Shown in pieces: positions 6,538 to 25,537 of a DNA stretch of 64,000 nt. The stretch is taken from the NCBI GenBank assembly GCA_945879015.1, contig CAMCUO010000005.1, forward strand, positions 1,306 through 65,305, written 5' to 3'. The DNA comes from Chitinophaga pinensis (GTDB lineage: Bacteria > Bacteroidota > Bacteroidia > 2-12-FULL-35-15). The translations under genes and the position numbers were made by a program. A model generated the notes under the pieces. The model searched no databases. It was not told where the DNA came from and saw only the letters and a program-made list of their open reading frames with translations. Numbering within the stretch: position 1 is the stretch's first letter; the number at the start of each line of letters is the position of its first letter.

Positions 6538-6545
6538 TATATTTG
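6538..6545 (+). promoter_or_regulatory. Candidate Bacteroidota -7 promoter box TATATTTG (TAnnTTTG) upstream of dnaN
   Basis: Exact match to the TAnnTTTG consensus, 36 nt before the dnaN ATG. Confidence 0.35.
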
Positions 6546-6580
6546 TTCTATTAAATAAAAAAACTTAATTCGACCTAAAT

Positions 6581-10134: not shown

Positions 10135-10180
10135 TTTATGAACCTTAAAATTAATCAACATTATCTTTCCAAATAAAATA

Positions 10181-10209
10181 CACCCCTAACCCCTCTCAAG
10201 AGGGGAATG
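10181..10209. repeat. Family C C-rich/G-rich mini-palindrome (cacccctaacccctctcaagaggggaatg)
   Basis: Hairpin cccctc-tcaa-gagggg. Related elements lie at 16171, 49944 and 52886. Confidence 0.55.
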
Positions 10210-10281
10210 AATACTGCTAATATATAAATAAGTTCTTCGAAAAAATTATTCTTAGTGCCTTTGTGCTCTTAGTGGTATGTT

Positions 10282-10824
10282 TTACAACATCTTCAAAATT
10301 TCATCACTCATTGGGTTTACAGCAGATGAATAGTATTTTACTAATTCTCCTTTTTCGTTAATTAAGTATTTGCAAAAATTCCAAGTAGGCACTTCATTGT
10401 TCCACCCATTTTCTTTTTCATCACTTAACCAATTGTACAAAGTATTATCTTTTACATCAATTTTTTCAAAAAGCTGAAATGTAACTCCGAAATTTTTTCT
10501 GCAAAAAGCACCAATATCTGAATTCGTTCCAGGTTCTTGTCCGCCAAAATTATTTGCAGGAAAACCAAGTATAGTTAGTTTGTTGCCATGTGTTTCATGC
10601 AATTTCTGCAATTCATCATACTGAGGAGTATAGCCACATTCAGAGGCAGTATTCACAATCAATAGTTTTTTTCCTTTATAAGACGAAAAGTCGATTTCTT
10701 TTCCTTCAATAGACTTCAATTTGAAATCATAAAATGATTTTGAACTCATTTTTGTATTATTAGGTCGTGATGAAACTCCTTTTGGAGAAAACAATTTTAG
10801 TAATTGATATATTAAATTTTTCAT
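10282..10824 (-). CDS. Glutathione peroxidase (Cys type)
   Basis: NTASECGYTPQY active-site region and FPANNFGGQEPG. The true start may be the internal MSSKSFYDF at 10749. Confidence 0.85.
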   Translation of the reverse strand: MKNLIYQLLKLFSPKGVSSRPNNTKMSSKSFYDFKLKSIEGKEIDFSSYKGKKLLIVNTASECGYTPQYDELQKLHETHGNKLTILGFPANNFGGQEPGTNSDIGAFCRKNFGVTFQLFEKIDVKDNTLYNWLSDEKENGWNNEVPTWNFCKYLINEKGELVKYYSSAVNPMSDEILKML

Positions 10825-10827
10825 AAA

Positions 10828-13251
10828 TTATTCTACTATCCTCAGTTTTGCAAATTTTATTAATAATTGTTTTTGTCCAATTCCATCAAAAAATATTGTT
10901 GCTTTATTATTTGGAAATGCGCCATCCATACTAACCACTTTTCCACTGCCAAAACGATCGTGCTGGACTTGCATCCCTACATTTAAATCTCGTAAACTTT
11001 CAGTATCGAAATCAGAAGTGTTTTTGGATGCTTTATTTACTTTCACCAACTTTTTCCCAATTACTGGTCGTTGTACAAATGTTTCCTTTGGTTTAGATGT
11101 ATGCAATTTCGGTTTTAATGAATATTCTTCATCAGCAAATATCCGCCCTTTGTTTTCTGTTGGTAACTGAATATATTTTGAATCCAATTCTTCAATGAAT
11201 CTGCTTGGTTCGCAATAAATTAAATTCCCCCAACGGTAACGAGTTGTAGAGTAGGAGAGTGTGATTCTTTTTTCTGCACGTGTTAATGCAACATAAAATA
11301 ATCTTCGTTCTTCTTCCAAATCTGCTCTTTCGGTTAACGACATCTGTGAAGGAAATAAATTTTCTTCCATTCCAACAATATATACATACGGGAACTCTAA
11401 TCCTTTCGCAGCATGAATCGTCATCAATACTACTTTGTTTTTATCTTCTTCTGTTTCGTTCTTTTTATCAGCATCTGTCATTAATGCAATGTCTTGCATG
11501 AAAATATTCAGAGTAGTTGTTGGTTGCTCGCTGTTGGTTGTAGGTTCATCCGTAAATAACAAAGCACTTTCTTCTTCTTCTCTTTTGACTTTTAACTTTT
11601 GACTTTCTTCTCTTTCTAATTGGTTCTCAATCTCCGTTTCATCTTTTACAATTTCAATCTCACTTTCAGTAAATTCTTTTATTCCATTTAGTAATTCTTG
11701 AATATTCTCATGCCTGCTTACTCCTTCGGGAGATTTATCAGCATACAAGTCTTTTAGAATGCCTGAATGTATTGCTATATGTTGTCCTAAGTCATAAGCA
11801 TTTTGTGTTGTCAATTGTGCTGAAAAACTTTTTATCATGCTAGCGAATTCATCAACTTTAGTTTTTGCACCGGTGTTTAGCCCAATATCAAATTCGTTTA
11901 TGTTTTCAATTACTTTCCACAAACTGATATTATGGTCGTTGGCAGCTACAATAATTTTTTCAAGTGTTGTATCGCCAATTCCACGAGCAGGATAATTTAT
12001 TATTCTTTTTAAAGCTTCTTCATCGTTATTGTTAATCGTCATACGATAATAAGCCAATAAATCTTTTATTTCTTTTCGTTGATAAAAAGACAATCCGCCG
12101 TAAATGCGATACGCAATATTTTGTCTACGTAAAGCTTCTTCCATTGCTCTGGATTGCGCATTGGTTCTATATAAAATAGCAAAGTCACGGTTATGCGCCT
12201 GCTCATTCATTTTTGTTTCGAAAATAGAATTGGCAATAAAATTTCCTTCTAAATTATCACTTTCGGTTTTTACAACTTTAATTATTTCACCTTCTGCATT
12301 ATCTGTGAAAACATTTTTTTTCAGCTGATCTTTATTTTTTGCGATAACGGAATTTGCAGCACCAACAATATTTTTTGTAGAACGATAATTTTGTTCCAAT
12401 TTAAAAATGCGTAATTCAGGATAATCTTTTTCGAAATTTAAAATGTTCTGAATGGTTGCTCCACGGAAAGCATAAATACTTTGAGCATCATCACCCACCA
12501 CACATATATTTCGGAAAGCCGCTGCCAACTGTTTAACAATTAAGTATTGAGAAAAGTTGGTATCCTGATACTCATCCACCAAAATATATTTGAACTTATG
12601 TTGATATTTATGAAGCACTGCCGGAAAATCGCGCAAGAGAACATTTGTATTGAATAGCAAATCATCAAAATCCATAGCACCAGCCTTGAAACAGCGGTTG
12701 CGATAAATTTCATAAATAATACCCATTTTTGGTTTGGCCGACTGACGATCTTCCTCTTGAATTTGAGGATTATTAAGATAAGATTGAGCCGAAATCAGGT
12801 TGTTTTTTGCAGAAGAAATTCGCGACAAAACAGCTCCTGGTTTATAAATTTTATCGTCCAAACCTTGTTCTTTAAGGATAGTTTTGATTAAACTTTTGGC
12901 ATCATCCGTATCATAAATGGTAAAATTGGGAGGATAGCCTATTTTTTCAGCCTCACTGCGTAAAATCCTGGCAAAAACTGAGTGAAAAGTACCCATCCAA
13001 AGGTTTTTTGCTTCGCCTTGACCCACAATTTTAGCAATCCGCTCCTTCATTTCTCGAGCGGCCTTATTGGTGAACGTTAAGGATAGAATATTAAAAGGAT
13101 CAACTCCTTTGGTCATGATATGCGCTACTCGGTAGGTCAAAACACGCGTTTTCCCCGAACCCGCTCCTGCTATAATCATTACTGGACCTTCGGTACACTC
13201 AACTGCCTCTCTTTGAACCGGATTTAGCTCTTCTAAATACGTTTTTGACAT
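10828..13251 (-). CDS. UvrD/PcrA-family ATP-dependent DNA helicase
   Basis: 807 aa with Walker A GAGSGKTRVL, VDEYQDTN, and a C-terminal Tudor-like tail (FGSGKVVSMDG...). Confidence 0.9.
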   Translation of the reverse strand: MSKTYLEELNPVQREAVECTEGPVMIIAGAGSGKTRVLTYRVAHIMTKGVDPFNILSLTFTNKAAREMKERIAKIVGQGEAKNLWMGTFHSVFARILRSEAEKIGYPPNFTIYDTDDAKSLIKTILKEQGLDDKIYKPGAVLSRISSAKNNLISAQSYLNNPQIQEEDRQSAKPKMGIIYEIYRNRCFKAGAMDFDDLLFNTNVLLRDFPAVLHKYQHKFKYILVDEYQDTNFSQYLIVKQLAAAFRNICVVGDDAQSIYAFRGATIQNILNFEKDYPELRIFKLEQNYRSTKNIVGAANSVIAKNKDQLKKNVFTDNAEGEIIKVVKTESDNLEGNFIANSIFETKMNEQAHNRDFAILYRTNAQSRAMEEALRRQNIAYRIYGGLSFYQRKEIKDLLAYYRMTINNNDEEALKRIINYPARGIGDTTLEKIIVAANDHNISLWKVIENINEFDIGLNTGAKTKVDEFASMIKSFSAQLTTQNAYDLGQHIAIHSGILKDLYADKSPEGVSRHENIQELLNGIKEFTESEIEIVKDETEIENQLEREESQKLKVKREEEESALLFTDEPTTNSEQPTTTLNIFMQDIALMTDADKKNETEEDKNKVVLMTIHAAKGLEFPYVYIVGMEENLFPSQMSLTERADLEEERRLFYVALTRAEKRITLSYSTTRYRWGNLIYCEPSRFIEELDSKYIQLPTENKGRIFADEEYSLKPKLHTSKPKETFVQRPVIGKKLVKVNKASKNTSDFDTESLRDLNVGMQVQHDRFGSGKVVSMDGAFPNNKATIFFDGIGQKQLLIKFAKLRIVE

Positions 13252-13440
13252 AAATTCTTTAAATTTTGCTCAAAAATAAGCTAAAAATGATGCTAAAAAG
13301 CAGATTTTAATGTGTGTTGAAAAGTAATCCTGCGTTTTTTTTTAACACATGCAACTTTTGGGCATAATTGTACATCTGCTATGTATATTTCAATATAATT
13401 AGTAAATTAGTCGGATAATAAAATCAAAAAAAATTTTAAA

Positions 13441-13851
13441 ATGAAAAAACTTATCTATTCTCTTGTAATTACATTTTTAATGGGATTATCGGTAAACACA
13501 TTCGCTCAAAAAGCAGTTGCTACTATGGCATATTTGAATGTTAAAACTTCTAAAAAAGTTGTAGATGATAAAACTGCAATTGTTAGCTTTCAGTTAAATA
13601 ACATTTCAGATGAAGCTACATTAGCAAAATATAAGAAAGCATTTTCTTCTCAACAAAGAATTCAGTCAGTAACTACTTCTTTGCAAAAAGGAAATATGGC
13701 TTCTTTTTATATTAAAATGGACAAAACAGCAACACTAGAAACTTTACAAAGATTATTCGTTAAGGCACATGTTGCATCAGTAAATGTTGATGGCAAAGTT
13801 GCAGCTACTAAAGATCTTTCTAAATTAAAACAAAAATCTGCTAAAAAATAA
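13441..13851 (+). CDS. Hypothetical secreted protein
   Basis: 136 aa with a signal peptide (MKKLIYSLVITFLMGLSVNTFAQ). No recognisable domain. Confidence 0.5.
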   Translation: MKKLIYSLVITFLMGLSVNTFAQKAVATMAYLNVKTSKKVVDDKTAIVSFQLNNISDEATLAKYKKAFSSQQRIQSVTTSLQKGNMASFYIKMDKTATLETLQRLFVKAHVASVNVDGKVAATKDLSKLKQKSAKK

Positions 13852-13871
13852 TATTTTTTCATACTTATAAA

Positions 13872-14999
13872 ATGGGTATTACTTTTTGTAATCCCCATTT
13901 TGTTTTTTACACCCATTCCATTATTGTGGTCGAACCGATAAACAAACAATTGCATTTCATCATTGGCATTGGACGCTCCGGAACGACCATTCTGAATAAG
14001 ATATTAAATTCTCATCCTTCTATTCACAGTTTACCAGAGGCAAATTTCCTTCTTTTTTTTCTGAACGATTATAAAAATGTAACTCGTTTTACAAAAGAGA
14101 ATATTGAGTTAATGTTTCAGCAGATTAAGATCTTTTCATTGTCGCATCCATTGGTTGGTTGGGAATTGGACATGGAAAATGCAAAGCAAAATCTTATAGA
14201 TATTGTTTCAAAAGGTGAATTGTCCTATGCTACACTTTGTAAAACTATTTATTCTGAAATTAAAGTAACAGGGAAAGACAAGTCAAACGCTACAATGCTG
14301 ATTGATAAAAATCCTGCTTTTACTTTATCAGTTGACCAATTGGAAAAACATTTTCCTGAATCAAAATTTATTTTGTTGGTTAGAGATTACAGAGCAAATG
14401 TATTGTCGAGAAAACAAAATGCTTATTTGAAATCACCTCTTGTGCCTTATAATGCTACTCGTTGGAGAGTTTTTAATCTGATTGCCAATAAGTTTTATCA
14501 AAAGCATAAGAGCAAAGTATTGTTATTGAGATATGAAGATTTGGTGAGCGAATACGATGCATCCATGAAAAAAGTGTTTGCCTTTTTAAATGTGAAAGAG
14601 GAAGATATGAAAGAAACGGACTTGTCGAAAGTGGATGTTTCAAAAATGGAAATTGCTAATGAGCATAAAAAATACTTTTCAAAAAAATATGAAGATTTAA
14701 GTAAGCCAATTAATACCAAGAGAGTAAATGCATGGCAAACAGAATTGAGCAAAGAGGATATTGCTGAGTGTGATACTATTTGTGCGAGTTTTGCTAAAGT
14801 GTTTGGTTATACAGAATTTACTCCTGTTCCTTTTTTCAAAAAAATCGGGATTATCTTAAAGAACATTTTTATTATTATTCCTTCTTATTTAGATATTAAA
14901 AAGGATCAGTTGTTGTACCACGTTTCTGCAAAAACAAAAATGAATGCTTTGATTAAGCGACACGAAACGCTTGGTTTTATTAAGCGTTCAGATTCGTAA
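13872..14999 (+). CDS. PAPS-dependent sulfotransferase
   Basis: 5'-PSB loop GIGRSGTTIL and a 3'-PB-like VRDYRANVLSRK. Confidence 0.75.
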   Translation: MGITFCNPHFVFYTHSIIVVEPINKQLHFIIGIGRSGTTILNKILNSHPSIHSLPEANFLLFFLNDYKNVTRFTKENIELMFQQIKIFSLSHPLVGWELDMENAKQNLIDIVSKGELSYATLCKTIYSEIKVTGKDKSNATMLIDKNPAFTLSVDQLEKHFPESKFILLVRDYRANVLSRKQNAYLKSPLVPYNATRWRVFNLIANKFYQKHKSKVLLLRYEDLVSEYDASMKKVFAFLNVKEEDMKETDLSKVDVSKMEIANEHKKYFSKKYEDLSKPINTKRVNAWQTELSKEDIAECDTICASFAKVFGYTEFTPVPFFKKIGIILKNIFIIIPSYLDIKKDQLLYHVSAKTKMNALIKRHETLGFIKRSDS

Positions 15000-15052: not shown

Positions 15053-16096
15053 CTAAATCCGATTCTTCGAAGGAGAAGGCCTGAAGGCTAAAGGTAGCTT
15101 GTATTTTATCTTAATTAAAATTCCCCAGACTGAGGATTTCAAATAACAATAGTTGTAATATAGTTTATCGAAAATAGTAGTTTTTTTTGAAGGAATGTGT
15201 TTCGCATAACCGAATCTCAAAGCCAATTTCTCACAAGCAAAATCAAGCAAAGCAATTTCTTCCGATTTTAATTCATTCACATAAGCATTAACCCTTTCGG
15301 TATTTACCTTTTTTTCCAAATTACCGTGCATACGTTGAATTTTTTCATTCTTTTCCTTAGAAACATTTTCCACCGCATGCTTTTTTATCTCTTTTGAAAG
15401 TTCCTGAAAATTGAGCATTTGCTCGGTATACGGAACATGAATGTAGGAACAAAGCAATTGTAAGTGCTCTGTAGGATCACTTGCCAAGTCTTCATATTTA
15501 ATTAAATGATAGGGAATGTTTTTCGTGGCAAGACATTCAAAAATGCTTTCATAATAATAATTCCAATCGGCTGCCAACTTGTGAATTGGAACATTTTCAT
15601 CCGAATATTTTCTTCTCGATAAAATATTGTCTCTGTAATCTCTAACAATGACAATAAATTTTGCATCAGGAAAGATTTCTGAAATTTTATCAATGTGCAA
15701 AGAGTAAGATGGATTTTTATCGATTACCCAATTCACATTTTTCTTCTCTTTTTGAGATAGGGGGTAATTCAAATAAGCGAGCTTGCAAACATTTGCAAAA
15801 GTTTTATCCTTTAACTGAAGGATATCTTTCTTTAATTCCGGACCGGGTTTCCATATACTTATCACTCTGTTGAAATTTTGGTCGAACATATCAATAAATG
15901 CATCCACTACTTTCTCATCATTAAAATCCTGCTGATGAAAGGTGTGATAAGAGTGCATAATGAATTCGTTTTCTGGACTGGCAATAATCTCAGGATTGGA
16001 ATTGAGTATATTTGTGAGAAGAGTAGTGCCCGAGCGACCCATTCCTACAATAAAGGCAATTTTTGGTAAAGATGATAATGGTTTTAATTCAGTCAT
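15053..16096 (-). CDS. PAPS-dependent sulfotransferase (paralog)
   Basis: GMGRSGTTLL and VRDYRDNILSRRK. Confidence 0.75.
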   Translation of the reverse strand: MTELKPLSSLPKIAFIVGMGRSGTTLLTNILNSNPEIIASPENEFIMHSYHTFHQQDFNDEKVVDAFIDMFDQNFNRVISIWKPGPELKKDILQLKDKTFANVCKLAYLNYPLSQKEKKNVNWVIDKNPSYSLHIDKISEIFPDAKFIVIVRDYRDNILSRRKYSDENVPIHKLAADWNYYYESIFECLATKNIPYHLIKYEDLASDPTEHLQLLCSYIHVPYTEQMLNFQELSKEIKKHAVENVSKEKNEKIQRMHGNLEKKVNTERVNAYVNELKSEEIALLDFACEKLALRFGYAKHIPSKKTTIFDKLYYNYCYLKSSVWGILIKIKYKLPLAFRPSPSKNRI

Positions 16097-16197: not shown

Positions 16198-16310
16198 GGC
16201 TGAGGTTTTAAAAGGGCTATTTTTGATTTTCACCTAGTATAAAAGTAACAATTATTCGTTTATTTGAGTATTTTTGAGATATTTGTATAGTATGGTAATG
16301 GGCATAAATT

Positions 16311-18854
16311 ATGAGGCTAATTGACAAATATTTTCCTTTAATTTCAGTTACTTCAGAAAATCGGGAGGCGCTTTTCAATATCGATAGGCTTCGTTTTTTT
16401 AGTCTGGCTTTAGCGCAATTTATTTTAATTCTTTTTATTGTTACTCGCTATAATTTTGAAAAGTCATCAGGAATAATCGATTATGCTCCTTATGTTATTC
16501 TAGTATTTGCAATTTATAGTTTTATTGCCATCCGTTTTCGTCCAGCATTTCTATTTCTTGCGTGTGTTGCACTTGTTTATGCAGCATTTGGAATTCTGGC
16601 TGGAAGTTTTTTTATTCTTATCGGATTAGGTTTGATTTTAATTTGTCACTTACCTATAAAATATACTTATCGCTTTGTATTAATATTAGCTATTGCATTT
16701 CTTCTAGCTCTTTTTAGGACAGAATTTATTTACATTCCATGGATGACTATGACTGCTATGTACATGGCTCCATTGTTTATGTTCCGACTCATTATTTATT
16801 TGTATGAAATAAAGAACGGAGTGGTACCTGCAAATAAATGGCAAAGTATCAGTTACTTTTTTATGTTTCCAAATGTGTTCTTTCTCTTCTTTCCAATTAT
16901 CGATTACAAAACCTATATCAAAACACACCTCGATTCACCTGAAAAAGAAATATGGCAAAAAGGAATTCGATGGATGCTGCGTGGATTGATTCACATCATG
17001 TGTTATCGTTTGATCTGTTTTCATTTTTTAATCGGACCAGTTGAAGTAATTGACCTTCCAACAATGTTGCAATACATGGTGGTTAATTATTCTTTGATTA
17101 TCAGACTTTCTGGTGTATTTCATTTTATGATTGGTCTGGTTTGTATGTTTGGATTCAATCTTCCTCAAATATTTGACAATTATTTTACTGCTACCAGCTT
17201 TGTTGATTTGTGGAGAAGAATAAATATTTATTGGAGAAATTTCGTTCTAAAAATATTTTTCTACCCAACAATGTTTAGGTATAAAAAAATTCTGAAAAAG
17301 AATTTGTTGGCTTTTACCATGATGACGGTTTTCTTTATAACCTGGATAATGCATAGTTATCAGTTGTTTTGGATAACAGGTGTAGTTTCTGTTAGATCCA
17401 TAGATGTTATTTTTTGGATGGTGATTGGTGCATGTATAACTACAAATTCGGTAATTGTTGAAAAATATACTTTAGCTGAAGACAGAGTAGAAAAGCCTCA
17501 ATCGGAGTTTAAAAAGTATTTCATGAAAATAATCCGAATGATGGGAATGTTTCTTTTCATGTCAATTATGTGGTCGTTATGGAATACACGTACATTGGAA
17601 GATTGGCTTTTTATTGTTTCAAAAGGAAAACAAGTTGATTCGAAACAGTTACTTCTTATTTTTTCGGTTGTAATTGGAATTATTGGTTTAGGAATTCTTG
17701 TTCAGATGATGTTGAAAAATGTTAAGTTAAAACAGCTTATTAATAGGAAACCGCACGAAACAATTTTATTGACTTTGTCTACACTTACACTTCTAACATT
17801 ATTTTCTTTCAAAGAAATTCGTTCTAATATACCTTTATCAGTGCAACATTTGTACGATCAAATTTCTGATGGTTCAGCTAACAAACTTGAGAAAACAAAT
17901 GCTGAAGCAGGTTATTACGATAAATTGATTGAAGGCGAAGAGGGCAATACAATTGGCATAGGAGGAAGGTCATTAAAAAAGATGGTGAAGAAAAATCCTT
18001 ATACCAATGCTTATATTTATCAAAACAATATTGTAAACCGAAGAATGAAACCCAATCTCAACATTGTTGGTTCGGATCATAATTTTCAAAGTAATAGTTT
18101 TGGAATAAGAGATAAAGAGTATTCTATAAAAAAACCTCTTGGAACAAAACGTTTAGCATTGCTTGGCGGCTCTTATCAAATGGGTTCTGGTGTAAATAAC
18201 AATGAAGTTTTTGAAGCCATTGCAGAAGAAAGAATGAACAAAGAGTTGGTGGATACAAATTATAAAGCTTTTGAAATTTTCAATTTTGCTGCTGGTGGTT
18301 ATTATTTGTTGCAGCATGTTGAAATAGTTCATACATCTGTATTTCAATACGACATGGATGCCTTGGTATATTTTGCGCATACTGATGAAAGAGGCAAAGT
18401 GGTAAAAGATTTTACTACTATTATCAAGAAAGAATTGCCATTGAAATACCCATTTCTTCAGCAAATTGTCAAAGAAAGCGGCATTAAATCTTATATGAGT
18501 ATTTTACAAATAAGAGAATTACTGACTCCATATGCCGATACAATTATGAAATGGGGTTATAAGGAAATATATGAGCAATGTAAAAAGAACAATGTGGTTC
18601 CTGTTTGGGCCTATATGGAAACTACTACTGAGTTTGTTGATGATGCAGAATATAATGAGCTAAAAGCATACGCTGAATCATTAGGTTTTGTAACTTTGGA
18701 TTTACGCAATACCTATGGCAATATTGATAGAGTTGAAATTCAGATTTCGGATTTAAATACTCACCCAAATGTATTAGGACATCGATTGATTGCTGAAAGG
18801 TTTTATAAAGAGTTGAAATTAAAAAGAGATAGTATTTTTAGAATTGTTGAATAA
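16311..18854 (+). CDS. MBOAT-family membrane acyltransferase (DltB/AlgI-like) fused to a C-terminal SGNH/DltD-like domain
   Basis: 847 aa. The N-terminal roughly 470 aa are polytopic, with the MBOAT signatures DLWRRINIYWRNF and the conserved His in FFITWIMHSYQLFW. After 2-3 further TMs, a soluble domain carries LLGGSYQMGSG (block I-like Ser) and DLNTHPNVLGHRLIAERF (block V-like). Confidence 0.75.
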   Translation: MRLIDKYFPLISVTSENREALFNIDRLRFFSLALAQFILILFIVTRYNFEKSSGIIDYAPYVILVFAIYSFIAIRFRPAFLFLACVALVYAAFGILAGSFFILIGLGLILICHLPIKYTYRFVLILAIAFLLALFRTEFIYIPWMTMTAMYMAPLFMFRLIIYLYEIKNGVVPANKWQSISYFFMFPNVFFLFFPIIDYKTYIKTHLDSPEKEIWQKGIRWMLRGLIHIMCYRLICFHFLIGPVEVIDLPTMLQYMVVNYSLIIRLSGVFHFMIGLVCMFGFNLPQIFDNYFTATSFVDLWRRINIYWRNFVLKIFFYPTMFRYKKILKKNLLAFTMMTVFFITWIMHSYQLFWITGVVSVRSIDVIFWMVIGACITTNSVIVEKYTLAEDRVEKPQSEFKKYFMKIIRMMGMFLFMSIMWSLWNTRTLEDWLFIVSKGKQVDSKQLLLIFSVVIGIIGLGILVQMMLKNVKLKQLINRKPHETILLTLSTLTLLTLFSFKEIRSNIPLSVQHLYDQISDGSANKLEKTNAEAGYYDKLIEGEEGNTIGIGGRSLKKMVKKNPYTNAYIYQNNIVNRRMKPNLNIVGSDHNFQSNSFGIRDKEYSIKKPLGTKRLALLGGSYQMGSGVNNNEVFEAIAEERMNKELVDTNYKAFEIFNFAAGGYYLLQHVEIVHTSVFQYDMDALVYFAHTDERGKVVKDFTTIIKKELPLKYPFLQQIVKESGIKSYMSILQIRELLTPYADTIMKWGYKEIYEQCKKNNVVPVWAYMETTTEFVDDAEYNELKAYAESLGFVTLDLRNTYGNIDRVEIQISDLNTHPNVLGHRLIAERFYKELKLKRDSIFRIVE

Positions 18855-18888: not shown

Positions 18889-19152
18889 ATGCGTGCAGAC
18901 ATTAACGAAATAAAAGAAACAGTAAAGGCGTTCGTTAATAAACGTTTTTTAAAAAATGCTGAAGGGAAAGAATTAAACTATTCAACTCCTCTCATTTCTG
19001 GTGGTATTATTGATTCGATACTTGCTATGCAGTTGGTTGTTTTCCTAGAACAAACCTACAGGTTTGAATTTCAAGCACACGAAGTTGATAAAGATAATTT
19101 AGATAACATCGATATCATTGCAGGGTTTGTTGTAAAGAAGTTGAATGCATAA
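18889..19152 (+). CDS. Stand-alone carrier protein (PCP/DltC-like)
   Basis: 87 aa. GGIIDSILAMQLVVFLE contains the phosphopantetheine Ser. Its 3' end overlaps the adenylase start. Confidence 0.8.
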   Translation: MRADINEIKETVKAFVNKRFLKNAEGKELNYSTPLISGGIIDSILAMQLVVFLEQTYRFEFQAHEVDKDNLDNIDIIAGFVVKKLNA

Positions 19153-20599
19153 GGTAAATAAGCTATATCAGCTTCTTGAAAATTCGGCAGAACAGTTTCC
19201 GGATAATACTGCTTTAGTTTTGCAAGAAAAAAAGATTAGCTATCAACAATTAGATTCATTAGCTAATAAAATAAAACAAGCTCTTCATTCTATAAACATT
19301 TCTGAAGGAAATCGTATCGCTATTTGCTCTCCTAAATCCATTGAATTTGTCGCCTCTATTTTCGGAATATTAAAAGCTGGTGCTGCTTATGTTCCTGTTG
19401 ATTATAATTCACCTATTGAACGCAATAATTTTATTATTGAAAATTGTGAAGTAGCTGCAATTATTATTACTAAAGACTTGTTAGAAAATTTTAAAAATAA
19501 TTTTACGTTTTTCGCAGATATTGGAATTGATTTAGTTTTAGCAAAAAGCAATAAGGTAACATTAAAAAAATCTTCTGAAGATTTATCCTATATTCTATAT
19601 ACTTCAGGCTCAACGGGAAATCCAAAGGGTGTAATTTATACCAATGCTGGAGCACTTGAATTTATCAATTGGAGTTCAAATACTTTTTCTCCCACTTCGA
19701 GTGATTGTTTTTCGTCGCATGCGCCTTTTCATTTCGATCTTTCTATTTTTGATTTATATGTTTCTATAAAGCATGGAGCAACTTTGGTTCTGATAAAAGA
19801 AGAAGTGGCGAAACAACCTATGCTATTGGCTCAATTAATTTCAGAACAAAAAATTAGTATTTGGTATTCTACTCCTTCAATTCTAATAATGCTTTCGGAA
19901 TATGGCAAAATGGAAAAGTATAAGTATGATAGTTTGAGATTGATATTATTTGCTGGTGAAGTTTTCCCAATTGTCAAATTAAATACATTAAAGAAAAAAG
20001 TTAAAACATCGGTTTTTTATAATCTTTATGGACCAACAGAAACAAATGTTTGTACGTATTATCAATTGCCTGAAAATATTGAAACAAATATTCCGATTGG
20101 AAAAGTATGCGAACATTATCAAGCCTGTGTTGTTGGTGATGAGCTTTTAATTAGCGGAAAAGGTGTGATGTTGGGTTATTGGAATGTTCCTGAAAAAGAT
20201 AATTTTTGGAAGGACCAAGAAAATAGATTTTGGTACAAAACGGGTGATTTGGTAGATGTTGCAGAGAGTGGAGATTATATCTTTAAAGGCAGAAGAGATA
20301 GAATGGTGAAGCGCAATGGTTATAGAATAGAATTGGATGAAATAGAAACAGGATTAAGTAAACATCCCGATATTGTTATTGCGGCTGTTGTCAGTAAGAA
20401 CAATGAAGAAGAGCAAATGATTATTTCTGCCTTTGTTGTTTTAAGAAATACTGAGCAAAAATCAGTCATAAAAATGAAGGAATATTGTATGAATCACTTA
20501 CCTTCGTATATGGTTCCCAACGACTTTATTTTTGTTGAGGATTTGCCACAAACATCAAGCAATAAAGTGGATTATCAGAAATTAAAACAATTAGCCTAA
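19145..20599 (+). CDS. Stand-alone NRPS-type adenylation enzyme (DltA/PltF-like amino acid--carrier protein ligase)
   Basis: All A-domain cores are readable: LKAGAAYVPVD, LYTSGSTGNPKGV, FHFDLSIFD, NLYGPTETNV, YKTGDL, GRRDRMVKRNGYRIELDEIE, LPSYMVP, NKVDY. Confidence 0.85.
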   Translation: MHKVNKLYQLLENSAEQFPDNTALVLQEKKISYQQLDSLANKIKQALHSINISEGNRIAICSPKSIEFVASIFGILKAGAAYVPVDYNSPIERNNFIIENCEVAAIIITKDLLENFKNNFTFFADIGIDLVLAKSNKVTLKKSSEDLSYILYTSGSTGNPKGVIYTNAGALEFINWSSNTFSPTSSDCFSSHAPFHFDLSIFDLYVSIKHGATLVLIKEEVAKQPMLLAQLISEQKISIWYSTPSILIMLSEYGKMEKYKYDSLRLILFAGEVFPIVKLNTLKKKVKTSVFYNLYGPTETNVCTYYQLPENIETNIPIGKVCEHYQACVVGDELLISGKGVMLGYWNVPEKDNFWKDQENRFWYKTGDLVDVAESGDYIFKGRRDRMVKRNGYRIELDEIETGLSKHPDIVIAAVVSKNNEEEQMIISAFVVLRNTEQKSVIKMKEYCMNHLPSYMVPNDFIFVEDLPQTSSNKVDYQKLKQLA

Positions 20600-21747
20600 T
20601 GGAACTTTCCTTATCAACAGAGCAAATGCTTATCCAGGAAAACATTATTGGTTTTGCTCAAAAAGAATTGAATAATAATATTATTGAGCGCGATAAAAAC
20701 CAGCAGTTTTTACCTGAATTATGGAAAAAATGTGCGGAACAAAAACTTACTGGATTACCTGTTGAGGAAAAATTTGGTGGTGCTGGTTTAGATCCTATTT
20801 CTTCTGTTTTAGCATTGGAAGCATTGGGTTATGGCTCCGATGACGGTGGTTTGAATTTTTCTATATGTGCACATTTATTGGCTTGTGTTGTTCCTATCTG
20901 GAAATACGGAAACGAAAATCAAAAGAAAAAATACTTGCCTGATTTATGTAATGGAAAAAAAATTGCTGTAAATGCAATGACAGAAAGCGAATCGGGTTCG
21001 GATGTTTTTAATATTAAAACAACTGCTAAAAAGCAGGATAATGGATTTGTGATAAACGGAACAAAAACGTTTTGTTCAAATGGTCCAGTTGGAGATATAA
21101 TTTTAGTTTATGCGCTTACTGATGAAAGCAAAGGGTATTATGGTGGAATTACAGCTTTCATTGTAGATAAAAATGCAAAAGGATTTAAAGTCGGTCAGAA
21201 ATATGAGAAAATGGGTTTGCGCAGTTCGGGTATTTCTGAAGTAATATTTGAAAATGTTTTTGTTTCAGAAGAAGATATGGTTGGAGGATTTGGTGGTGGA
21301 GCAACGGTGTTTAATCATTCGATGGAGTGGGAGCGAACTGGTATGGCAGCTTTGCATGTTGGAACCATGCGCAAGTTGCTTGAAAAATCAATTGATTATG
21401 TTCAAACACGCAAATCAGGAAATGAAGTAATCGGTAAAAAACAAGCTATCGCTCATCGCATTGCAAATATGAAAGTTCAATTGGAAGCAGCTTCTTTGCT
21501 TACTTATAAAGCTGCATTAGGATTAGAAAAAAATAAAGAGAACATGATTCATGCAGCTTCAGCTAAACTTTTTGTGAGTGAAGCATTTGTTGCTGCTGCG
21601 ATTGATACCATGCAACTTTTTGGTGGAAATGGTTATATGACAGAATACGGTATTGAAAGAATTGTGCGAGATGCTCTTGGAAGTACTGTTTATTCTGGCA
21701 CATCCGATATTCAACGTAACATCATTTCTCGTTTGCTTGGATTGTAA
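20599..21747 (+). CDS. Acyl-CoA dehydrogenase-family flavoprotein, probably acting on a carrier-bound substrate
   Basis: 382 aa with the ACAD fold length. The C-terminal RDALGSTVYSGTSDIQR has Ser where MCAD has the catalytic Glu, and a Glu is present in SMEWER (IVD-like position). Start shares nt 20599 with the adenylase stop. Confidence 0.8.
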   Translation: MELSLSTEQMLIQENIIGFAQKELNNNIIERDKNQQFLPELWKKCAEQKLTGLPVEEKFGGAGLDPISSVLALEALGYGSDDGGLNFSICAHLLACVVPIWKYGNENQKKKYLPDLCNGKKIAVNAMTESESGSDVFNIKTTAKKQDNGFVINGTKTFCSNGPVGDIILVYALTDESKGYYGGITAFIVDKNAKGFKVGQKYEKMGLRSSGISEVIFENVFVSEEDMVGGFGGGATVFNHSMEWERTGMAALHVGTMRKLLEKSIDYVQTRKSGNEVIGKKQAIAHRIANMKVQLEAASLLTYKAALGLEKNKENMIHAASAKLFVSEAFVAAAIDTMQLFGGNGYMTEYGIERIVRDALGSTVYSGTSDIQRNIISRLLGL

Positions 21748-21790: not shown

Positions 21791-23179
21791 ATGAAACTAT
21801 ACGATGTCATCATTATTGGCGGGGGGCCAACAGGTTCAACTGCTGCGACACTTTTAGCTCAAAAAGGGTTAAGTGTTTTGTTGTTAGAAAAAGAATCCTT
21901 CCCAAGAGAACATGTTGGTGAATCATTGATTCCGATTTCTTATGATCAATTGAATAAGTTGGGATTGGTTGAAGAAATGAAAAAAATTTCTAGTCGTAAA
22001 CCTGGAGTTAGTTTTGATGCAAATGATGGTGTGAACCGATCTTTATGGTGTTTTAAAAGTGTTATTAAAGATGAATCATATTTAGCTTTTCATGTTATCC
22101 GTTCGGCATTTGATAAGCTTTTGTTGGATAATAGTAAAAAAGTGGGAGCTGAAGTGAGAGAGCAATACATGGTGAAAAATGTAATTCTTGATAGAGCAGA
22201 TAAAATAGTAGAAGTGCATGCAACAAATGCAGAAGGCAAAGAAGAAAAATTTGAATCCAAATTTATTGTTGACGCAAGTGGACTAAGTACTTTTCTAGGA
22301 AGAAAATTGGGAGTTAAAAAAGCATATGCGGGTTTAGATAGAGTGGCTACTTGGTCGCACTGGACAAACACCGAATTTGATACAAATTTAAAAGAAGGCG
22401 TTATTAAAATTGTTTATTTGGGTGGAGAGAAAAAAGGATGGATATGGGTTATTCCTGTGAGCAAAGAGCATTTGAGCATTGGTGTGGTTGTGAATAACAG
22501 TCATGTGAAAGAAAAGAAAAAGCAATTTCAAGATTCAGAAGATTGGAAAAAAGATTATTATTTGCAGGAACTACAAGAATGTTATTTGTATAAAACGGTA
22601 TTGAAAAACGCTAAGATGGAGCATAAAGTTGCCATGGCTGGTGACTACTCTTATTACTGCGAAAAAAAGTATGGTGAAAATTATGCTTTAGTTGGAGATG
22701 CTGGTGCATTTTTAGATCCTATTTTTTCAAGCGGAATTTTTGTTGGAATGAAGAGTGCTGAATTGGTAGCGGATGGTATTGAAGCGAACCTGAAAGGAAA
22801 AGGGAATGCTGAAATGGACAAAGCTTATGTTAATATCAATGGTGCTGTCAACTTACTTGAAAAATTTATTCGCTTGTTTTATACTCCTGAAGCACTTGAT
22901 TTTTCTAAGATTGGAACTCCAGAAGGACTTTTAATGTTTAAAAAATACGAACAAACATATTCCGTTTTCCATTACTTATTAGCGGGTGATTTTTTCAATA
23001 ATTATGAAAAGTACAGTGAATTTATTGATACCATACGTGATGAGAAGACTATGGCCAAATTCGAAAATTTAATTGATCACGCGCACAGCGCCTTACCTAA
23101 AAGTTGCGGAGAAGATTTTGAAGAAATGTATGGTGAAATGACGCATAAAATTGAGTTTGATCATAAGGCGTTTGAGTAA
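21791..23179 (+). CDS. FAD-dependent halogenase-like oxidoreductase
   Basis: Start taken at MKLYDVIIIGGGPTGS (GxGxxG). Also carries FPREHVGESLIP, GWIWVIP (WxWxIP) and GDAGAFLDPIFSSG. The ORF-track start at 21653 overlaps the ACAD gene and is rejected. Confidence 0.7.
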   Translation: MKLYDVIIIGGGPTGSTAATLLAQKGLSVLLLEKESFPREHVGESLIPISYDQLNKLGLVEEMKKISSRKPGVSFDANDGVNRSLWCFKSVIKDESYLAFHVIRSAFDKLLLDNSKKVGAEVREQYMVKNVILDRADKIVEVHATNAEGKEEKFESKFIVDASGLSTFLGRKLGVKKAYAGLDRVATWSHWTNTEFDTNLKEGVIKIVYLGGEKKGWIWVIPVSKEHLSIGVVVNNSHVKEKKKQFQDSEDWKKDYYLQELQECYLYKTVLKNAKMEHKVAMAGDYSYYCEKKYGENYALVGDAGAFLDPIFSSGIFVGMKSAELVADGIEANLKGKGNAEMDKAYVNINGAVNLLEKFIRLFYTPEALDFSKIGTPEGLLMFKKYEQTYSVFHYLLAGDFFNNYEKYSEFIDTIRDEKTMAKFENLIDHAHSALPKSCGEDFEEMYGEMTHKIEFDHKAFE

Positions 23180-23349: not shown

Positions 23350-24063
23350 TCAAAAAAACCAAGCACTAACATTCATCACAATCTTCCTTCCCCAAGAAGG
23401 AACATGTTTTAAAAAATAAAAATTCTGAAATTTTAATTGCCACCAAAGTGTTGCATTTACTTTAGCACAAATTTGTTTTTTGTCATTTTCAAATTCTTCA
23501 CGTAAAATATCAATAATCAAAATCCACCGTTCATTTTCTGTTTTGTTCCATACTTCATGTTCGTATGCATCACAGAAGGCAAAGAGTTTTCCATTTTTCC
23601 ATGAAATTTGCTCATTTCCAACTCTCATTCCAATTTCCGGTAAGCTATTTTTGCAGTTTAAAGTAAAGTGACATCGATACATCACATTGCTATCACCATG
23701 ATGTGGTTTTATGGAAGTATTTGCATTTAAAATGGAAAACGAAGCATGTGTCATTGCTGGAATGCTTTCGATTATTCTTGTCGTCTCCGGACATTTTTCA
23801 CAATTTTCTTTTTTCTTTTTGCTCCAAACATACAATGGAAAAATAGTCCAGTTCTCTGCTTTGCTGGCAAGTGATTTATTCATGTAAGGAATAATATTTT
23901 TATCCTTTGATTCAACAAGTTTGGTGAATTCTTTTAAAATTAAATCGTAATTGTCTTCAAAAAGAGCCACCCATTTTTTGTCATGGATATCAAAAAAATT
24001 AGGCTCTGGGCCTTTGTAAGCGCTATTCTCTGCAAACGAATACCATTTCTTTGAATTTCCCAT
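23350..24063 (-). CDS. Aspartyl/asparaginyl beta-hydroxylase (AspH/LpxO) family Fe(II)/2OG dioxygenase, paralog 1
   Basis: KPHHGDSNVMYRCHFTL and FCDAYEHEVWN. Confidence 0.75.
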   Translation of the reverse strand: MGNSKKWYSFAENSAYKGPEPNFFDIHDKKWVALFEDNYDLILKEFTKLVESKDKNIIPYMNKSLASKAENWTIFPLYVWSKKKKENCEKCPETTRIIESIPAMTHASFSILNANTSIKPHHGDSNVMYRCHFTLNCKNSLPEIGMRVGNEQISWKNGKLFAFCDAYEHEVWNKTENERWILIIDILREEFENDKKQICAKVNATLWWQLKFQNFYFLKHVPSWGRKIVMNVSAWFF

Positions 24064-24806
24064 TAGTAAACTTTAAATAGATTAACACTTACTATAGCCA
24101 GTCGTGTAAATGGATGTAAACATTTTGCTAAAAACTTAATTGTTCTAGCAGATAATTTTTTAAGAAAAGTATATTTCTGCCATCTCTTTTGTAAAAAAAG
24201 CGAAGTCATTACTGTTGCGCAAATTTTTTCTTTTTCATTTTTAAATTCATCACGCACAACATCCACCACAAAAATAAAACGATCTTTCTCCGAATTATTA
24301 TACGCTTCATGTTGATAGGCATCCATAAACATCAACCATTTCCCATTTTTCCATGGACGAACTTCCTCTTTAACTTTAAAGGCACATTCTGGAAGTCCAG
24401 CCGGAATTTCCAGTCCTAAATGACATCTATAAATAGTATTTGTATCTCCGCAATGTGGATGAATTTTACTTTTTGCTTCTAATAAATTAAAAGAGGAAGA
24501 AGTAATTTCTGGATATTTTTGAATAATGGAATAAGTTATTGGAAAATATTTCTGATTTTTAAACTGTTGAATTCCCCATGTTCTCAGTGGAATTGTTTTC
24601 CAGCTATTTTCACGCGAAACCATTGATTTTATAAAATAACCAATGAGGTTGTCGCTTTTAAGATATTCTTTGAGTTCTTTATAAATGGCTTCGTAATTTT
24701 CTTCAAACTCTTTTGTCCAGCGAAATTCTTCTGGTTTAGTAAAAGGAGCTTCCGTTCCATGATATTCGTCATTTACGTTATATATGTTGTACCAAGCCTT
24801 TTGCAT
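24063..24806 (-). CDS. AspH/LpxO-family dioxygenase, paralog 2
   Basis: HPHCGDTNTIYRCHLGLEIP and FMDAYQHEAYN. Its stop shares nt 24063 with the paralog 1 start. Confidence 0.75.
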   Translation of the reverse strand: MQKAWYNIYNVNDEYHGTEAPFTKPEEFRWTKEFEENYEAIYKELKEYLKSDNLIGYFIKSMVSRENSWKTIPLRTWGIQQFKNQKYFPITYSIIQKYPEITSSSFNLLEAKSKIHPHCGDTNTIYRCHLGLEIPAGLPECAFKVKEEVRPWKNGKWLMFMDAYQHEAYNNSEKDRFIFVVDVVRDEFKNEKEKICATVMTSLFLQKRWQKYTFLKKLSARTIKFLAKCLHPFTRLAIVSVNLFKVY

Positions 24807-24850
24807 CCACTCTTTATTTATTATATTTGTTTTAGTAAAAACTCTAGCAA

Positions 24851-25537
24851 ATGTCTGAATTCGAATTTACAAATAAAAATCCTAAGTTCTTTTATGATTC
24901 TGCTCAGTTTCCTTTTTTGAAGCCATTGCTTGATAATGTTGGGGTTATTCGAAAAGAGTTGCAAGATATTATTGCTTCAGGAAAGGAAAATCAATGGATG
25001 AATACGTTTCCACATTATGTAAAATCTGACGAGCACAAAGCTTGGAAGGTATTTTCATTTTTGTTCTTTAATATGAAGCTTCCCAACAACGCAAAATTAT
25101 GTCCGAAAACGGCTGAACTCATTTATTCTATTACAGAGATTCTTTCTTGTGATTATTCTTATATGAATCCAGGAACTCATGTGCTGCCTCACAAAGGTTA
25201 TTCACGAATGGTTTTACGTTGTCACATTGCTTTGATTGTTCCAGATGAGGAACTTTGTGCTTTACGTGTTGGAAATGAAATTAAACATTGGAAAGAAGGC
25301 GAACTTATAATTTTTGATGATTCATTTGAACATGAAGCATGGAATAGATCCGACAAAAGAAGAGTTGTTTTAATGTTTGATATTCCAAATCCCCTTTGGG
25401 GATATACTGCTCATGAAATTTCAAAATATAAAATTGATAAAATTGATGATCCTTTTCTTTTATCGATGGCTCCCAAAGATGAATGGATAAAAGCGTTTGA
25501 AAAAGGAATTTTTCCTTTGGAGAGTTTTAAAGATTAA
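24851..25537 (+). CDS. AspH/LpxO-family dioxygenase, paralog 3
   Basis: LPHKGYSRMVLRCHIALIVP and FDDSFEHEAWN. It is divergent from paralog 2 across a 44-bp spacer containing TATATTTG (24821-24828). Confidence 0.75.
   Translation: MSEFEFTNKNPKFFYDSAQFPFLKPLLDNVGVIRKELQDIIASGKENQWMNTFPHYVKSDEHKAWKVFSFLFFNMKLPNNAKLCPKTAELIYSITEILSCDYSYMNPGTHVLPHKGYSRMVLRCHIALIVPDEELCALRVGNEIKHWKEGELIIFDDSFEHEAWNRSDKRRVVLMFDIPNPLWGYTAHEISKYKIDKIDDPFLLSMAPKDEWIKAFEKGIFPLESFKD

Follow-up and report, generated by a model that had tools for sequence, protein, structure and literature searches.

The first gene of an operon in the window (the whole 64,000-nt stretch of Chitinophaga pinensis DNA that was analyzed) encodes an 847-aa protein in which an MBOAT-fold membrane domain and an SGNH-fold domain are joined in one polypeptide (16311-18854; positions are those of the window, and features lie on the forward strand unless marked otherwise). 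We lean, with modest confidence, toward the view that this protein is a single-chain trans-membrane acyltransferase that operates in a Dlt-like manner, is fed by a carrier protein, and moves a (halo)pyrrole-2-carbonyl group to an acceptor in the cell envelope.

A fused MBOAT-SGNH protein and its family

The presence of both domains in one 847-aa open reading frame, as the original prediction had proposed, was confirmed using the ORF calls, homologs, an AF2 model, and the fold matches of that model. A merger of two genes by a hidden frameshift was ruled out: an architecture of about 840 aa is standard in a family of 1,592 clusters (50% identity, E ≤ 1e-30), nearly all of 820-980 aa, that extends over at least 10 phyla; at least 563 species genomes encode a member. 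An alignment of 46 fusion proteins, with identity down to 29%, revealed six invariant catalytic-type residues: N305, H348, Y535, Y536, S621, and H818. Family members were seen in Accumulibacter and in other wastewater, soil, and marine lineages. Thirty-five nucleotides upstream of the ATG, TATTTTTG (16269-16276) matches what we take to be the Bacteroidota -7 promoter consensus, TAnnTTTG; the match is weak and is reported as a sequence observation only. A scan for sigma-70 promoters and terminators performed no better than on shuffled sequences, as expected in Bacteroidota. There was no sign of recent horizontal transfer of the operon, because its GC content (32.7%) matches that of the window (33.5%).

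In the AF2 model, the N-terminal part of the protein (aa ~1-430, 16311-17600) is an MBOAT fold. A fold search placed it with the multi-helix membrane domains of the DltB/HHAT/PORCN type and returned MBOAT structures only; DltB was the best match, and LPCAT3, MBOAT7, and DGAT1 were also among the matches. Searches by sequence detected no match to PF03062 or any other Pfam model in the fusion protein at E ≤ 1 and none to an NCBIfam MBOAT model, and neither phmmer nor a family profile found an MBOAT among PDB sequences, DltB being missed by the profile. As no curated sequence model recognizes this part of the protein, its assignment rests on the predicted structure and two motifs. The first motif, WRRIN (aa 301-305, 17211-17225), in which Asn305 replaces the second conserved His/Asn of MBOATs, has W301, R303, I304, and N305 invariant in all 46 proteins. 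The second, TW(L/I)LHSYQxFW, contains the candidate catalytic histidine, His348 (17352-17354), likewise present in 46/46. N305 and H348 lie 43 residues apart, within the superfamily expectation of about 40-50, and we take them to be the equivalents of DltB His289 and His336. Two earlier proposals were supported, namely that the conserved MBOAT histidine is the one within TWIMHSYQLFW, and that a protein with WRRIN is divergent from MBOATs with WRRWH; indeed, this branch of MBOATs is detectable by fold alone.

Past the MBOAT domain, two further TM helices (aa 444-467 and 485-504; together 17640-17822) enclose a K/R-rich loop on the cytoplasmic side; from the AF2 helices, hydropathy, and a family-wide charge bias, they are predicted to take the chain to the periplasm. 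Across the family, loops 301-331 (+6.8), 389-398 (+1.5), and 468-484 (+2.6) are net positive, in contrast to loops 357-362 and 426-443 and to the linker. Only one TM helix (485-504) separates the last of the positive loops from the SGNH domain, which, given these family-wide charges, is predicted to be extracytoplasmic. The linker contains GYYDKLI (aa 534-540, 17910-17930), flanked by residues with pLDDT <50 in the AF2 model. Y535 and Y536 are found in 46/46 fusion proteins, and G534 and L539 are each found in 41/46. The motif, GYYxxL(L/I), begins 30 residues past the last TM helix and agrees in position and in its tyrosine with the published (Dlt) shuttle motif FxYxxF, whereas the flanking residues differ. 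In PatA-type MBOATs, the shuttle motif is carried on two extra TM helices that DltB lacks (PMC12148441). By analogy, GYYxxL, which sits where those proteins have the acyl-shuttle tyrosine, is a candidate shuttle.

The C-terminal domain (aa ~566-847, 18006-18851), predicted to be periplasmic, has the flavodoxin-like alpha/beta/alpha fold of the SGNH/GDSL superfamily, as judged by a fold search with the AF2 model. The SGNH-like character that had been suggested for it is upheld by this fold and by two invariant residues. Ser621 (18171-18173), which is the nucleophile of block I and ends the motif LLG(G/A/S)S, lies in the Ser block originally proposed, LLGGSYQMGSG, and is present in 46/46 proteins. 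Block V, NTHPN (18756-18770), which a profile search matched weakly to the corresponding block of GDSL proteins, contains His818, also present in 46/46. Of the Asp/His pair that had been proposed around HPN, the histidine stands and the aspartate does not: position 814 is variable, and the conserved polar residue lies at His-2. The canonical DxxH aspartate is absent, His-3 being Trp in 30/46 proteins and Leu in this one, and position 816 (His-2) is Asp in 27/46 and Asn in 19/46, including the present protein. The SGNH domain could, therefore, be a poor or atypical catalyst. Its top fold matches are esterases, and DltD is absent from these top matches. With regard to the oxyanion residues (block II Gly and block III Asn), the alignment shows an invariant N658 in ExxNFAxGG and, at the expected site of block III, a near-invariant H690.

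Operon genes and the predicted acyl donor

The gene that follows, after a gap of 34 nt, encodes an 87-aa carrier protein (18889-19152; PP-binding) with a phosphopantetheine serine, Ser43, in GGIIDS (19015-19017). Its best PDB matches were 6cxt_A (E 4.6e-7), then PltL and PigG, all carrier proteins of pyrrole pathways; DltC was found only at E 0.8. A role in ornithine-lipid synthesis, raised by a match to ACP_for_OlsHI (75 bits; cut-off 130) and by OlsC-like neighbors, was rejected: the planctomycete GH3-type OlsH/OlsI pathway has no counterpart here.

The carrier gene overlaps by 8 nt with that of a stand-alone amino-acid adenylating enzyme of the PltF/DltA type (19145-20599; TIGR01733 317 bits, DltA 298 bits), which we predict to be specific for L-proline. 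In the specificity region, the best PDB match is PltF (6o6e, 111.7 bits vs. 67.7 for DltA), and in the same alignment columns this ligase reads DLFYLALVCK vs. DLLYLALVC in PltF. The form DL[LF]YLALVCK recurs in 30 of 44 cassette ligases. The code is thus that of PltF (L-Pro) and does not indicate D-alanine; a literature search with the specificity-code strings returned no match. The best full-length PDB match is LgrA module 2 (401 bits), which presumably activates Gly. We rejected a Gly assignment because LgrA drops to 39 bits in the specificity region, where PltF leads, and because the dehydrogenase described next would be left without a substrate.

That dehydrogenase, an acyl-CoA-dehydrogenase-family (ACAD) enzyme whose gene overlaps the ligase gene by 1 nt (20599-21747), is predicted to act on the L-prolyl-carrier protein. 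Models of prolyl-carrier dehydrogenases (PigA, RedW, AnaB) outscored any other ACAD by >100 bits; in NCBIfam, PigA scored 418 bits, RedW 381, and the next unrelated model 289. As the first two scores fall under the equivalog cut-offs (500 and 650, respectively), we regard the enzyme as a relative and do not call it an ortholog. In the PDB, it matched AnaB (4irn, 322 bits), 6cxt_B (295), and PigA (5zw0, 291), and because AnaB stops at pyrroline, a two-electron oxidation, pyrrole is not certain to be the product. The next gene encodes a 462-aa flavin-dependent halogenase (21791-23179; Trp_halogenase) of the type that acts on carrier-tethered substrates, with its true start at ATG 21791 and not at TTG 21653. 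Its best PDB matches are 8zop, CndH, Mpy16, CmlS, Bmp2, and PltA, and it retains GWIWVIP (WxWxIP), GxGxxG, and a lysine aligned with CndH Lys76, the catalytic Lys. The presence of a pyrrolyl-carrier-type halogenase favors a four-electron oxidation to pyrrole.

A thiotemplated pyrrole cassette combines a ligase for L-Pro with its own carrier protein and a prolyl-carrier dehydrogenase of the ACAD family; the predicted enzymes here make up such a set, and sequence comparison assigns all three donor enzymes to the proline/pyrrole type. With the halogenase, they have their best characterized matches in the PltF/PltL/PltE/PltA, PigI/PigG/PigA, RedM/RedO/RedW, Bmp4/Bmp1/Bmp3/Bmp2, and AnaC/AnaD/AnaB pathways.

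To assess conservation of the operon, we compared 37 related loci that retain 4 kb or more of flank on both sides; they come from Bacteroidota, Rhodothermales, Gemmatimonadota, Acidobacteriota, Chloroflexota, and Beta/Gammaproteobacteria. Beside the fusion gene, the carrier protein was found in 32/37 loci, the ligase in 31/37, the dehydrogenase in 30/37, and the halogenase in 11/37. A halogenation step would therefore be confined to roughly 30% of loci, among them those of the present lineage. Three loci (L022, L076, L082) have another ligase type and no dehydrogenase and retain the fusion gene, the carrier protein, and an AMP-binding enzyme, suggesting that dependence on a carrier is a constant of the family. 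In four others (L081, L032, L034, L043), the fusion gene lies in a polysaccharide locus with no cassette nearby, and these proteins might use another donor. The synteny is consistent with a carrier protein that supplies the MBOAT domain with its acyl group.

In the pathway that we propose, the ligase would adenylate L-proline and load it on the 87-aa carrier protein, the flavoprotein would convert prolyl-S-carrier to pyrrole-2-carbonyl-S-carrier, or at least to the pyrroline, and the halogenase, where present, would halogenate the ring. The acyl-carrier protein would dock on the MBOAT domain at its cytoplasmic side, which is rich in K/R, and His348 and Asn305 would catalyze transfer of the acyl group to Tyr536 or Tyr535 of GYYxxL. 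The flexible periplasmic linker would then bring the group to Ser621 of the SGNH domain, and Ser621/His818 would esterify the envelope acceptor. Two relays provide precedent: from DltB through the DltX tyrosine to the DltD serine, and from the C-terminal tyrosine of PatA, on its two extra TM helices, to the PatB serine (PMC12148441).

Neighboring genes, the candidate acceptor, and other readings

Two Sulfotransfer_3 sulfotransferase genes, one at 13872-14999 and one divergent from the fusion gene (15053-16096, reverse strand), are syntenic with it in Bacteroidia, as are three OlsC/LpxO-like Fe/2-oxoglutarate hydroxylase genes that span 23350-25537 (23350-24063 and 24063-24806, reverse strand; 24851-25537, forward strand). 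A reverse-strand block (26585-31179) that adjoins the operon in Bacteroidia encodes a PseH-like GNAT, an ArnC/PgfS-like GT2, an SDR, a KASIII, a 78-aa ACP (29893-30129), and another KASIII; this putative acylated-sugar/polyprenyl-phosphate-sugar module may build the acceptor. More widely in Bacteroidota and Rhodothermota, the context comprises sulfotransferases, GT2/GT4/GT8, Wzy_C, a Wzm/Wzt-like ABC transporter, and heparinase II/III-like and sugar-nucleotide genes. We regard a sulfated glycan or glycolipid, synthesized by the neighboring genes, as the probable acceptor in Bacteroidota. In Betaproteobacteria, the four-gene cassette stands among housekeeping genes, without glycan genes, and the argument for a glycan acceptor therefore does not generalize. 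A literature search found no pyrrole-acylated envelope polymer, and to our knowledge none has been described.

In known pyrrole pathways, the enzyme that receives the pyrrolyl-S-carrier is a PKS ketosynthase, NRPS, thioesterase, or soluble acyltransferase (for clorobiocin, CloN2/CloN7). A donor trio that forms a classical thiotemplated cassette of secondary metabolism could point to the off-loading or export of a natural product, the fusion protein either hydrolyzing the (halo)pyrrolyl-S-carrier, to give free (halo)pyrrole-2-carboxylate outside the cytoplasm, or esterifying a small diffusible alcohol, with no polymer modified. Hydrolysis is a common activity of SGNH domains; the esterases among the top fold matches, the Asn instead of Asp near His818, and the Betaproteobacterial gene sets also fit this explanation. 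However, the window has neither a PKS nor an NRPS condensation domain or thioesterase within about 10 kb, and, in contrast to the known cassettes, the only conserved partner is the membrane MBOAT-SGNH protein. Further, an MBOAT with 12-plus helices and a conserved shuttle-like Tyr motif seems over-elaborate for thioester hydrolysis, and a family of >1,500 clusters across phyla, with tandem paralogs that share one cassette inside glycan loci, suits several acceptors better than a single metabolite. We consider off-loading unlikely.

Alternatively, the acceptor could be a membrane lipid (an aminolipid, lysolipid, lipid A, or glycolipid) and not a polysaccharide, with the SGNH domain acting on a head group or acyl chain. 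The three hydroxylases, two KASIII, ACP, and SDR that flank the operon in the window would suit such a role, but lipid-type neighbors of this kind are limited to one Bacteroidia lineage, and other lineages have Wzy/GT4/ABC-type glycan loci. Similarly, many eukaryotic MBOATs acylate lipids, and LPCAT3, MBOAT7, and DGAT1 appear among the fold matches, yet the best of these matches, DltB, is a polymer-modifying MBOAT. The stand-alone cassettes of Proteobacteria, which require a ubiquitous acceptor, also agree with a lipid. We judge this explanation to be, if anything, slightly less probable than off-loading.

Finally, an acetyl-CoA-dependent O-acetyltransferase (a fused counterpart of PatA/PatB or AlgI/AlgJ) beside a carrier cassette of an unrelated pathway is very improbable: every characterized bacterial MBOAT/SGNH system but Dlt uses acyl-CoA (PMC12148441), some family members stand in glycan loci without the cassette, and some sources label homologs AlgI, but the carrier gene is directly adjacent in most loci, in distant phyla, and is kept when the ligase type changes, the genes in the window are closely packed and co-oriented, and the family is too divergent for the PF03062 model to detect.

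Comparison with known systems

The reading that we prefer, carrier-fed transfer of a (halo)pyrrole-2-carbonyl group by one chain, has its nearest parallel in the Dlt system of Firmicutes (DltA, DltC, DltB, DltX, DltD), in that a stand-alone adenylating enzyme and a small phosphopantetheine carrier protein are adjacent here. The two differ in several respects. The one chain found here, conserved as such, corresponds to three separate proteins, DltB, DltX, and DltD; the Dlt ligase activates D-Ala, whereas the code here is the proline code of PltF; the tethered acyl group would be remodeled here by a dehydrogenase and in many loci by a halogenase as well; and the hosts of the fusion are diderm phyla without teichoic acids. 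PatA/PatB, AlgI/AlgJ/AlgX, and WssH/WssI are separate proteins with acetyl-CoA as the donor and no carrier protein, unlike the fused, carrier-linked family described here, which the Pfam MBOAT model misses. The AT3-SGNH fusions (OatA, OafA/OafB) have an AT3/TmAT membrane domain of 10 TM helices, in place of which the fold search finds an MBOAT fold.

The original prediction held that known systems keep the MBOAT and its SGNH partner separate, and recent literature agrees, treating the fused form as a hallmark of AT3 and the split form as a hallmark of MBOATs (PMC12148441, PMC9558356, PMC12423673). Dlt, in turn, is treated as the sole carrier-protein-fed case of extracytoplasmic acylation (PMC12148441). 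The fusion family appears to break both rules. With donor site, candidate shuttle, and transferase in one chain, the protein is attractive for structural and mechanistic study of acyl transfer across membranes.

More broadly, and with somewhat less than even confidence, we propose that a widespread, undescribed envelope modification exists in diderms, in which a carrier-fed, Dlt-like machine built as one polypeptide attaches pyrrole-2-carbonyl groups, derived from proline and in some cases halogenated, to surface glycans or lipids through ester bonds (or, in variant loci, attaches other aroyl groups, e.g., 4-hydroxybenzoyl). Such a system would rank second, after Dlt, among MBOAT pathways that depend on a carrier protein; it would also provide the first characterized MBOAT-SGNH fusion of natural origin and give pyrrolyl-S-carrier proteins a new fate beyond secondary metabolism. 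Should the donor prove to be a (halo)pyrrolyl-carrier protein, (i) natural-product-type chemistry would be linked to envelope decoration, (ii) there would be a basis for naming thousands of proteins now annotated as "hypothetical" or "SGNH hydrolase", and (iii) new, possibly halogenated surface epitopes would be predicted, with effects on interactions with phages, predators, and antimicrobials.

Architecture of the fusion protein

The original prediction placed an MBOAT and an SGNH/DltD-like domain on one 847-aa open reading frame (ORF). ORF listing and translation of the window, with coordinates re-checked, confirmed an ATG-started ORF of 847 codons at 16311-18854 (+) containing every string quoted for it; because the window is 33.5% GC, an ORF this long is not a chance product. 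A homology search returned >1,700 significant homologs, and when each species was represented by a single genome, relatives were encoded at at least 563 loci. The best 80 loci span Bacteroidota, Rhodothermales, Ignavibacteria, Calditrichota, Gemmatimonadota, Acidobacteriota, Chloroflexota, Planctomycetota, Verrucomicrobiota and Beta/Gammaproteobacteria, including Accumulibacter. Of 1.84 billion cluster representatives searched exhaustively with a profile, 1,592 matched at E ≤ 1e-30, and the best 150 of these are nearly all 820-980 residues long and match end to end. Such widespread full-length relatives exclude a hidden frameshift merging two genes; the fusion is genuine and ancient. The homologs are named “hypothetical protein”, “SGNH/GDSL hydrolase family protein”, “DltB” or “AlgI” in databases. 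The fusion protein matched nothing in Pfam at E ≤ 1 and no PDB sequence, and its sole NCBIfam match was to an SGNH model (14.6 bits, residues 750-835).

An alignment of 46 homologs, with identity down to 29%, was used to build an AlphaFold2 model (mean pLDDT 84.4, pTM 0.77). Foldseek related the membrane part (residues ~1-430) to DltB (6bug/8jem, E about 1e-6) and the C-terminal part (~566-847) to GDSL esterases (E about 3e-4), so that, as modeled, both the MBOAT and the SGNH domain are real. Invariant columns of the alignment are N188, D198, W301, R303, N305 and H348 in the membrane part, and S621, G625, N658 and H818 in the SGNH part. The Asp/His block originally proposed for the latter held for its histidine, H818, but not for its aspartate, D814, which varies; block V instead has its conserved polar residue two positions before His818, this being Asp in 27/46 sequences and Asn in 19/46, the window protein among them.

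Hydropathy and the model helices extend the transmembrane (TM) segments to residue 504. Mean loop net charge (K+R minus D+E) over the 46 sequences was +6.8 at 301-331, about neutral at 357-362, +1.5 at 389-398, about neutral at 426-443, +2.6 at 468-484 and -0.9 in the linker (505-565). Given this pattern, and the single helix (485-504) that follows the last positive loop, the positive-inside rule predicts that the linker and SGNH domain lie in the periplasm, the side that the His348-bearing helix end also faces.

The linker is otherwise poorly conserved and modeled with low confidence (pLDDT <50 at 531-533, 543-547 and 551-561), and its sole invariant residues are Tyr535 and Tyr536, within the motif G-Y-Y-x-x-L-(L/I). 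Along the chain, the MBOAT core is followed by two more TM helices (444-467 and 485-504), the GYY motif and the SGNH domain. In the Dlt system, the microprotein DltX receives D-alanine from DltB on the tyrosine of its FxYxxF motif, and from this shuttle tyrosine the acyl group moves on to the SGNH partner's serine (PMC12148441). The position of the GYY motif and its tyrosine agree with this shuttle, whereas the residues on either side depart from FxYxxF; we therefore rate the motif a strong candidate for the acyl-shuttle tyrosine site, rather than a finding.

Predicted donor genes of the operon

The genes 3' of the fusion gene lie on the same strand and are closely spaced (a 34-nt gap, an 8-nt overlap and a 1-nt overlap). 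The first encodes an 87-aa carrier protein (18889-19152, +; GGIIDS, Ser43), whose best PDB relatives were the 77-aa carrier chain of 6cxt (E 4.6e-7), PltL and PigG, with DltC reaching only E 0.8. We take 6cxt to be the Bmp3-Bmp1 carrier complex of bromopyrrole biosynthesis. The second encodes a stand-alone amino-acid adenylating enzyme, or ligase (19145-20599, +; TIGR01733 317 bits, DltA models about 290 bits). The best PDB match of its 122-residue specificity region was PltF (6o6e), an L-proline--[L-prolyl-carrier-protein] ligase, at 111.7 bits, followed by a second prolyl ligase (81.5) and DltA (67.7). At ten motif-anchored positions, presumably the Stachelhaus code by our own motif placement, the window ligase reads DLFYLALVCK and PltF, in the same alignment columns, DLLYLALVC, this residue identity being computed; 30 of 44 ligases from such cassettes read DL[LF]YLALVCK.

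The third gene (20599-21747, +) encodes an ACAD-family flavoprotein that scored 418 bits with the PigA model and 381 with RedW, against 289 for the best unrelated ACAD model; its top PDB matches were AnaB prolyl-ACP dehydrogenase, 6cxt_B and PigA. The cassette is completed by a flavin-dependent halogenase (21791-23179, +) nearest to CndH, Mpy16, CmlS, Bmp2 and PltA, with GxGxxG, GWIWVIP and a lysine aligned with CndH Lys76. We assign its start to the ATG at 21791, where the alignable protein begins (MKLYDVIIIGGGP). A TTG start at 21653 (508-aa ORF) was rejected, as it would place 95 nt of the ORF within the dehydrogenase gene, and homologs have 451-465 aa.

Gene neighborhood and likely acceptor

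In the window and in related Bacteroidia loci, the operon is part of a syntenic block that encodes two sulfotransferases, three OlsC/LpxO-like hydroxylases, a PseH-like GNAT, an ArnC/PgfS-like polyprenyl-phosphate glycosyltransferase, an SDR, two KASIII and a 78-aa ACP. The Saprospiria neighborhood holds several sulfotransferase families, GT1, GT8, a methyltransferase and a Wzm/Wzt-like ABC transporter; in Rhodocaloribacter litoris the locus is of Wzy_C/GT4/GT2/sulfotransferase/heparinase-II/III type, with no cassette adjoining, and two large metagenomic contigs carry GT, sulfotransferase, carbamoyltransferase or sugar-nucleotide genes. From these neighbors we infer that the acceptor in Bacteroidota is a glycan or glycolipid, often sulfated. 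In Betaproteobacteria, the four genes stand amid housekeeping genes, much like the dlt operon of Firmicutes.

Several features of these neighborhoods deserve separate mention. The operon-adjoining part of the window block kept in Bacteroidia (26585-33304) runs PseH-like GNAT, ArnC/PgfS-like GT2, SDR, KASIII, ACP (29893-30129, -), KASIII and a 674-aa protein with C-terminal TPR repeats; by analogy, it resembles a pathway for an N-acylated sugar on polyprenyl phosphate with periplasmic transfer. The hydroxylases are three adjacent paralogs (23350-25537) of the OlsC/LpxO-like Asp/Asn-beta-hydroxylase family, scoring about 100-130 bits, far below the equivalog cut-offs of 450-500. A DUF808 gene (25603-26526, -) breaks the block; L002, L003 and L007, which are syntenic, have nothing equivalent at that position. 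Upstream of the sulfotransferases, a 136-aa ORF (13441-13851, +; cluster c15) is kept in Bacteroidia and has no family assignment; its homologs begin signal-peptide-like (MKK...AFAQ). A ~990-aa protein (cluster c29) lies near UvrD in L001, L007 and L008, and is absent from the window. In Pseudothauera rhizosphaerae (L079:8929-9669), an ACP phosphodiesterase gene (AcpH, PF04336) is directly upstream of the fusion gene; AcpH may act as a regulator of the carrier protein, or may lie there by coincidence.

Proposed transfer route and its variants

We consider the following chain, taken as a whole from L-Pro loading through acceptor esterification, to be slightly on the probable side. L-Pro would be adenylated and loaded on the carrier protein, the dehydrogenase would oxidize prolyl-S-carrier to pyrrole-2-carbonyl-S-carrier and, in the window lineage, the halogenase would halogenate it; the MBOAT domain would then carry the acyl group across the membrane onto Tyr536 (or Tyr535), a swing of the linker would bring it to Ser621, and the SGNH domain would esterify the acceptor. 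Of this, the analysis establishes the one-chain architecture, both folds, the invariant residues, the synteny and the families to which the donor enzymes belong; the remaining steps are proposals. The main rivals to this chain are (i) that the fusion protein is an off-loading or hydrolytic enzyme of a small-molecule pathway, and (ii) that the acceptor is a lipid. A third, that it is an ordinary acetyl-CoA-dependent O-acetyltransferase with coincidental neighbors, is strongly opposed by synteny: by tBLASTn of the window proteins against 80 loci, counted on the 37 with ≥4 kb on each side of the fusion gene, the carrier protein was found in 32/37, the ligase in 31/37, the dehydrogenase in 30/37 and the halogenase in 11/37, usually with the fusion gene first, then carrier protein, ligase and dehydrogenase.

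The fusion protein would work like Dlt and like PatA/PatB, with the one-chain logic of OatA/OafB, but is a member of none. Unlike in Dlt, the ligase is not D-Ala-specific and the three Dlt membrane components are one protein; unlike in OatA/OafB, the membrane domain is an MBOAT, not AT3; and the Pfam MBOAT model does not match the protein. In recent papers, bacterial MBOAT systems are described as using “a separate SGNH protein”, fusion being the AT3 solution (PMC12148441, PMC9558356, PMC12423673), and MBOAT/SGNH pathways besides Dlt as being without a carrier protein (PMC12148441). Full-text searches, of incomplete literature coverage, found no published description of an MBOAT with a pyrrole/halogenase/carrier-protein/adenylation/ACAD cassette.

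Loci with ligases of another type (L022, L076 and L082) lack the dehydrogenase but still encode a carrier protein together with an AMP-binding enzyme. The fusion protein is thus consistently partnered by a carrier protein and an activating enzyme, most commonly in the proline/dehydrogenase version. In L022 (Phycisphaerales; 9989-14512) and L076 (Verrucomicrobia; 2865-7688), a longer AMP-binding enzyme comes after the fusion gene and carrier protein, without an acyl-CoA dehydrogenase; the specificity code of both ligases, DMVWWANGGK, differs strongly from the proline-type code, and this looks like another donor class. In L082 (2706-12556), within a GT/sulfotransferase/carbamoyltransferase locus, two fusion-gene paralogs flank a carrier protein, a 575-aa AMP-binding enzyme, a PaaK-like ligase and an Rv2949c-like chorismate pyruvate-lyase, which suggests a 4-hydroxybenzoyl (aroyl), not pyrrolyl, donor.

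Two to four tandem fusion-gene paralogs stand beside a single cassette in several Saprospiria and Rhodothermales genomes. Loci with two to four tandem paralogs and at most one adjoining cassette (L077, L058, L028, L025, L014, L019, L031, L042, L057, L064 and L080) are mostly from Saprospiraceae/Lewinellaceae and Rhodothermales. A single donor cassette may serve several acceptor-specific transferases.
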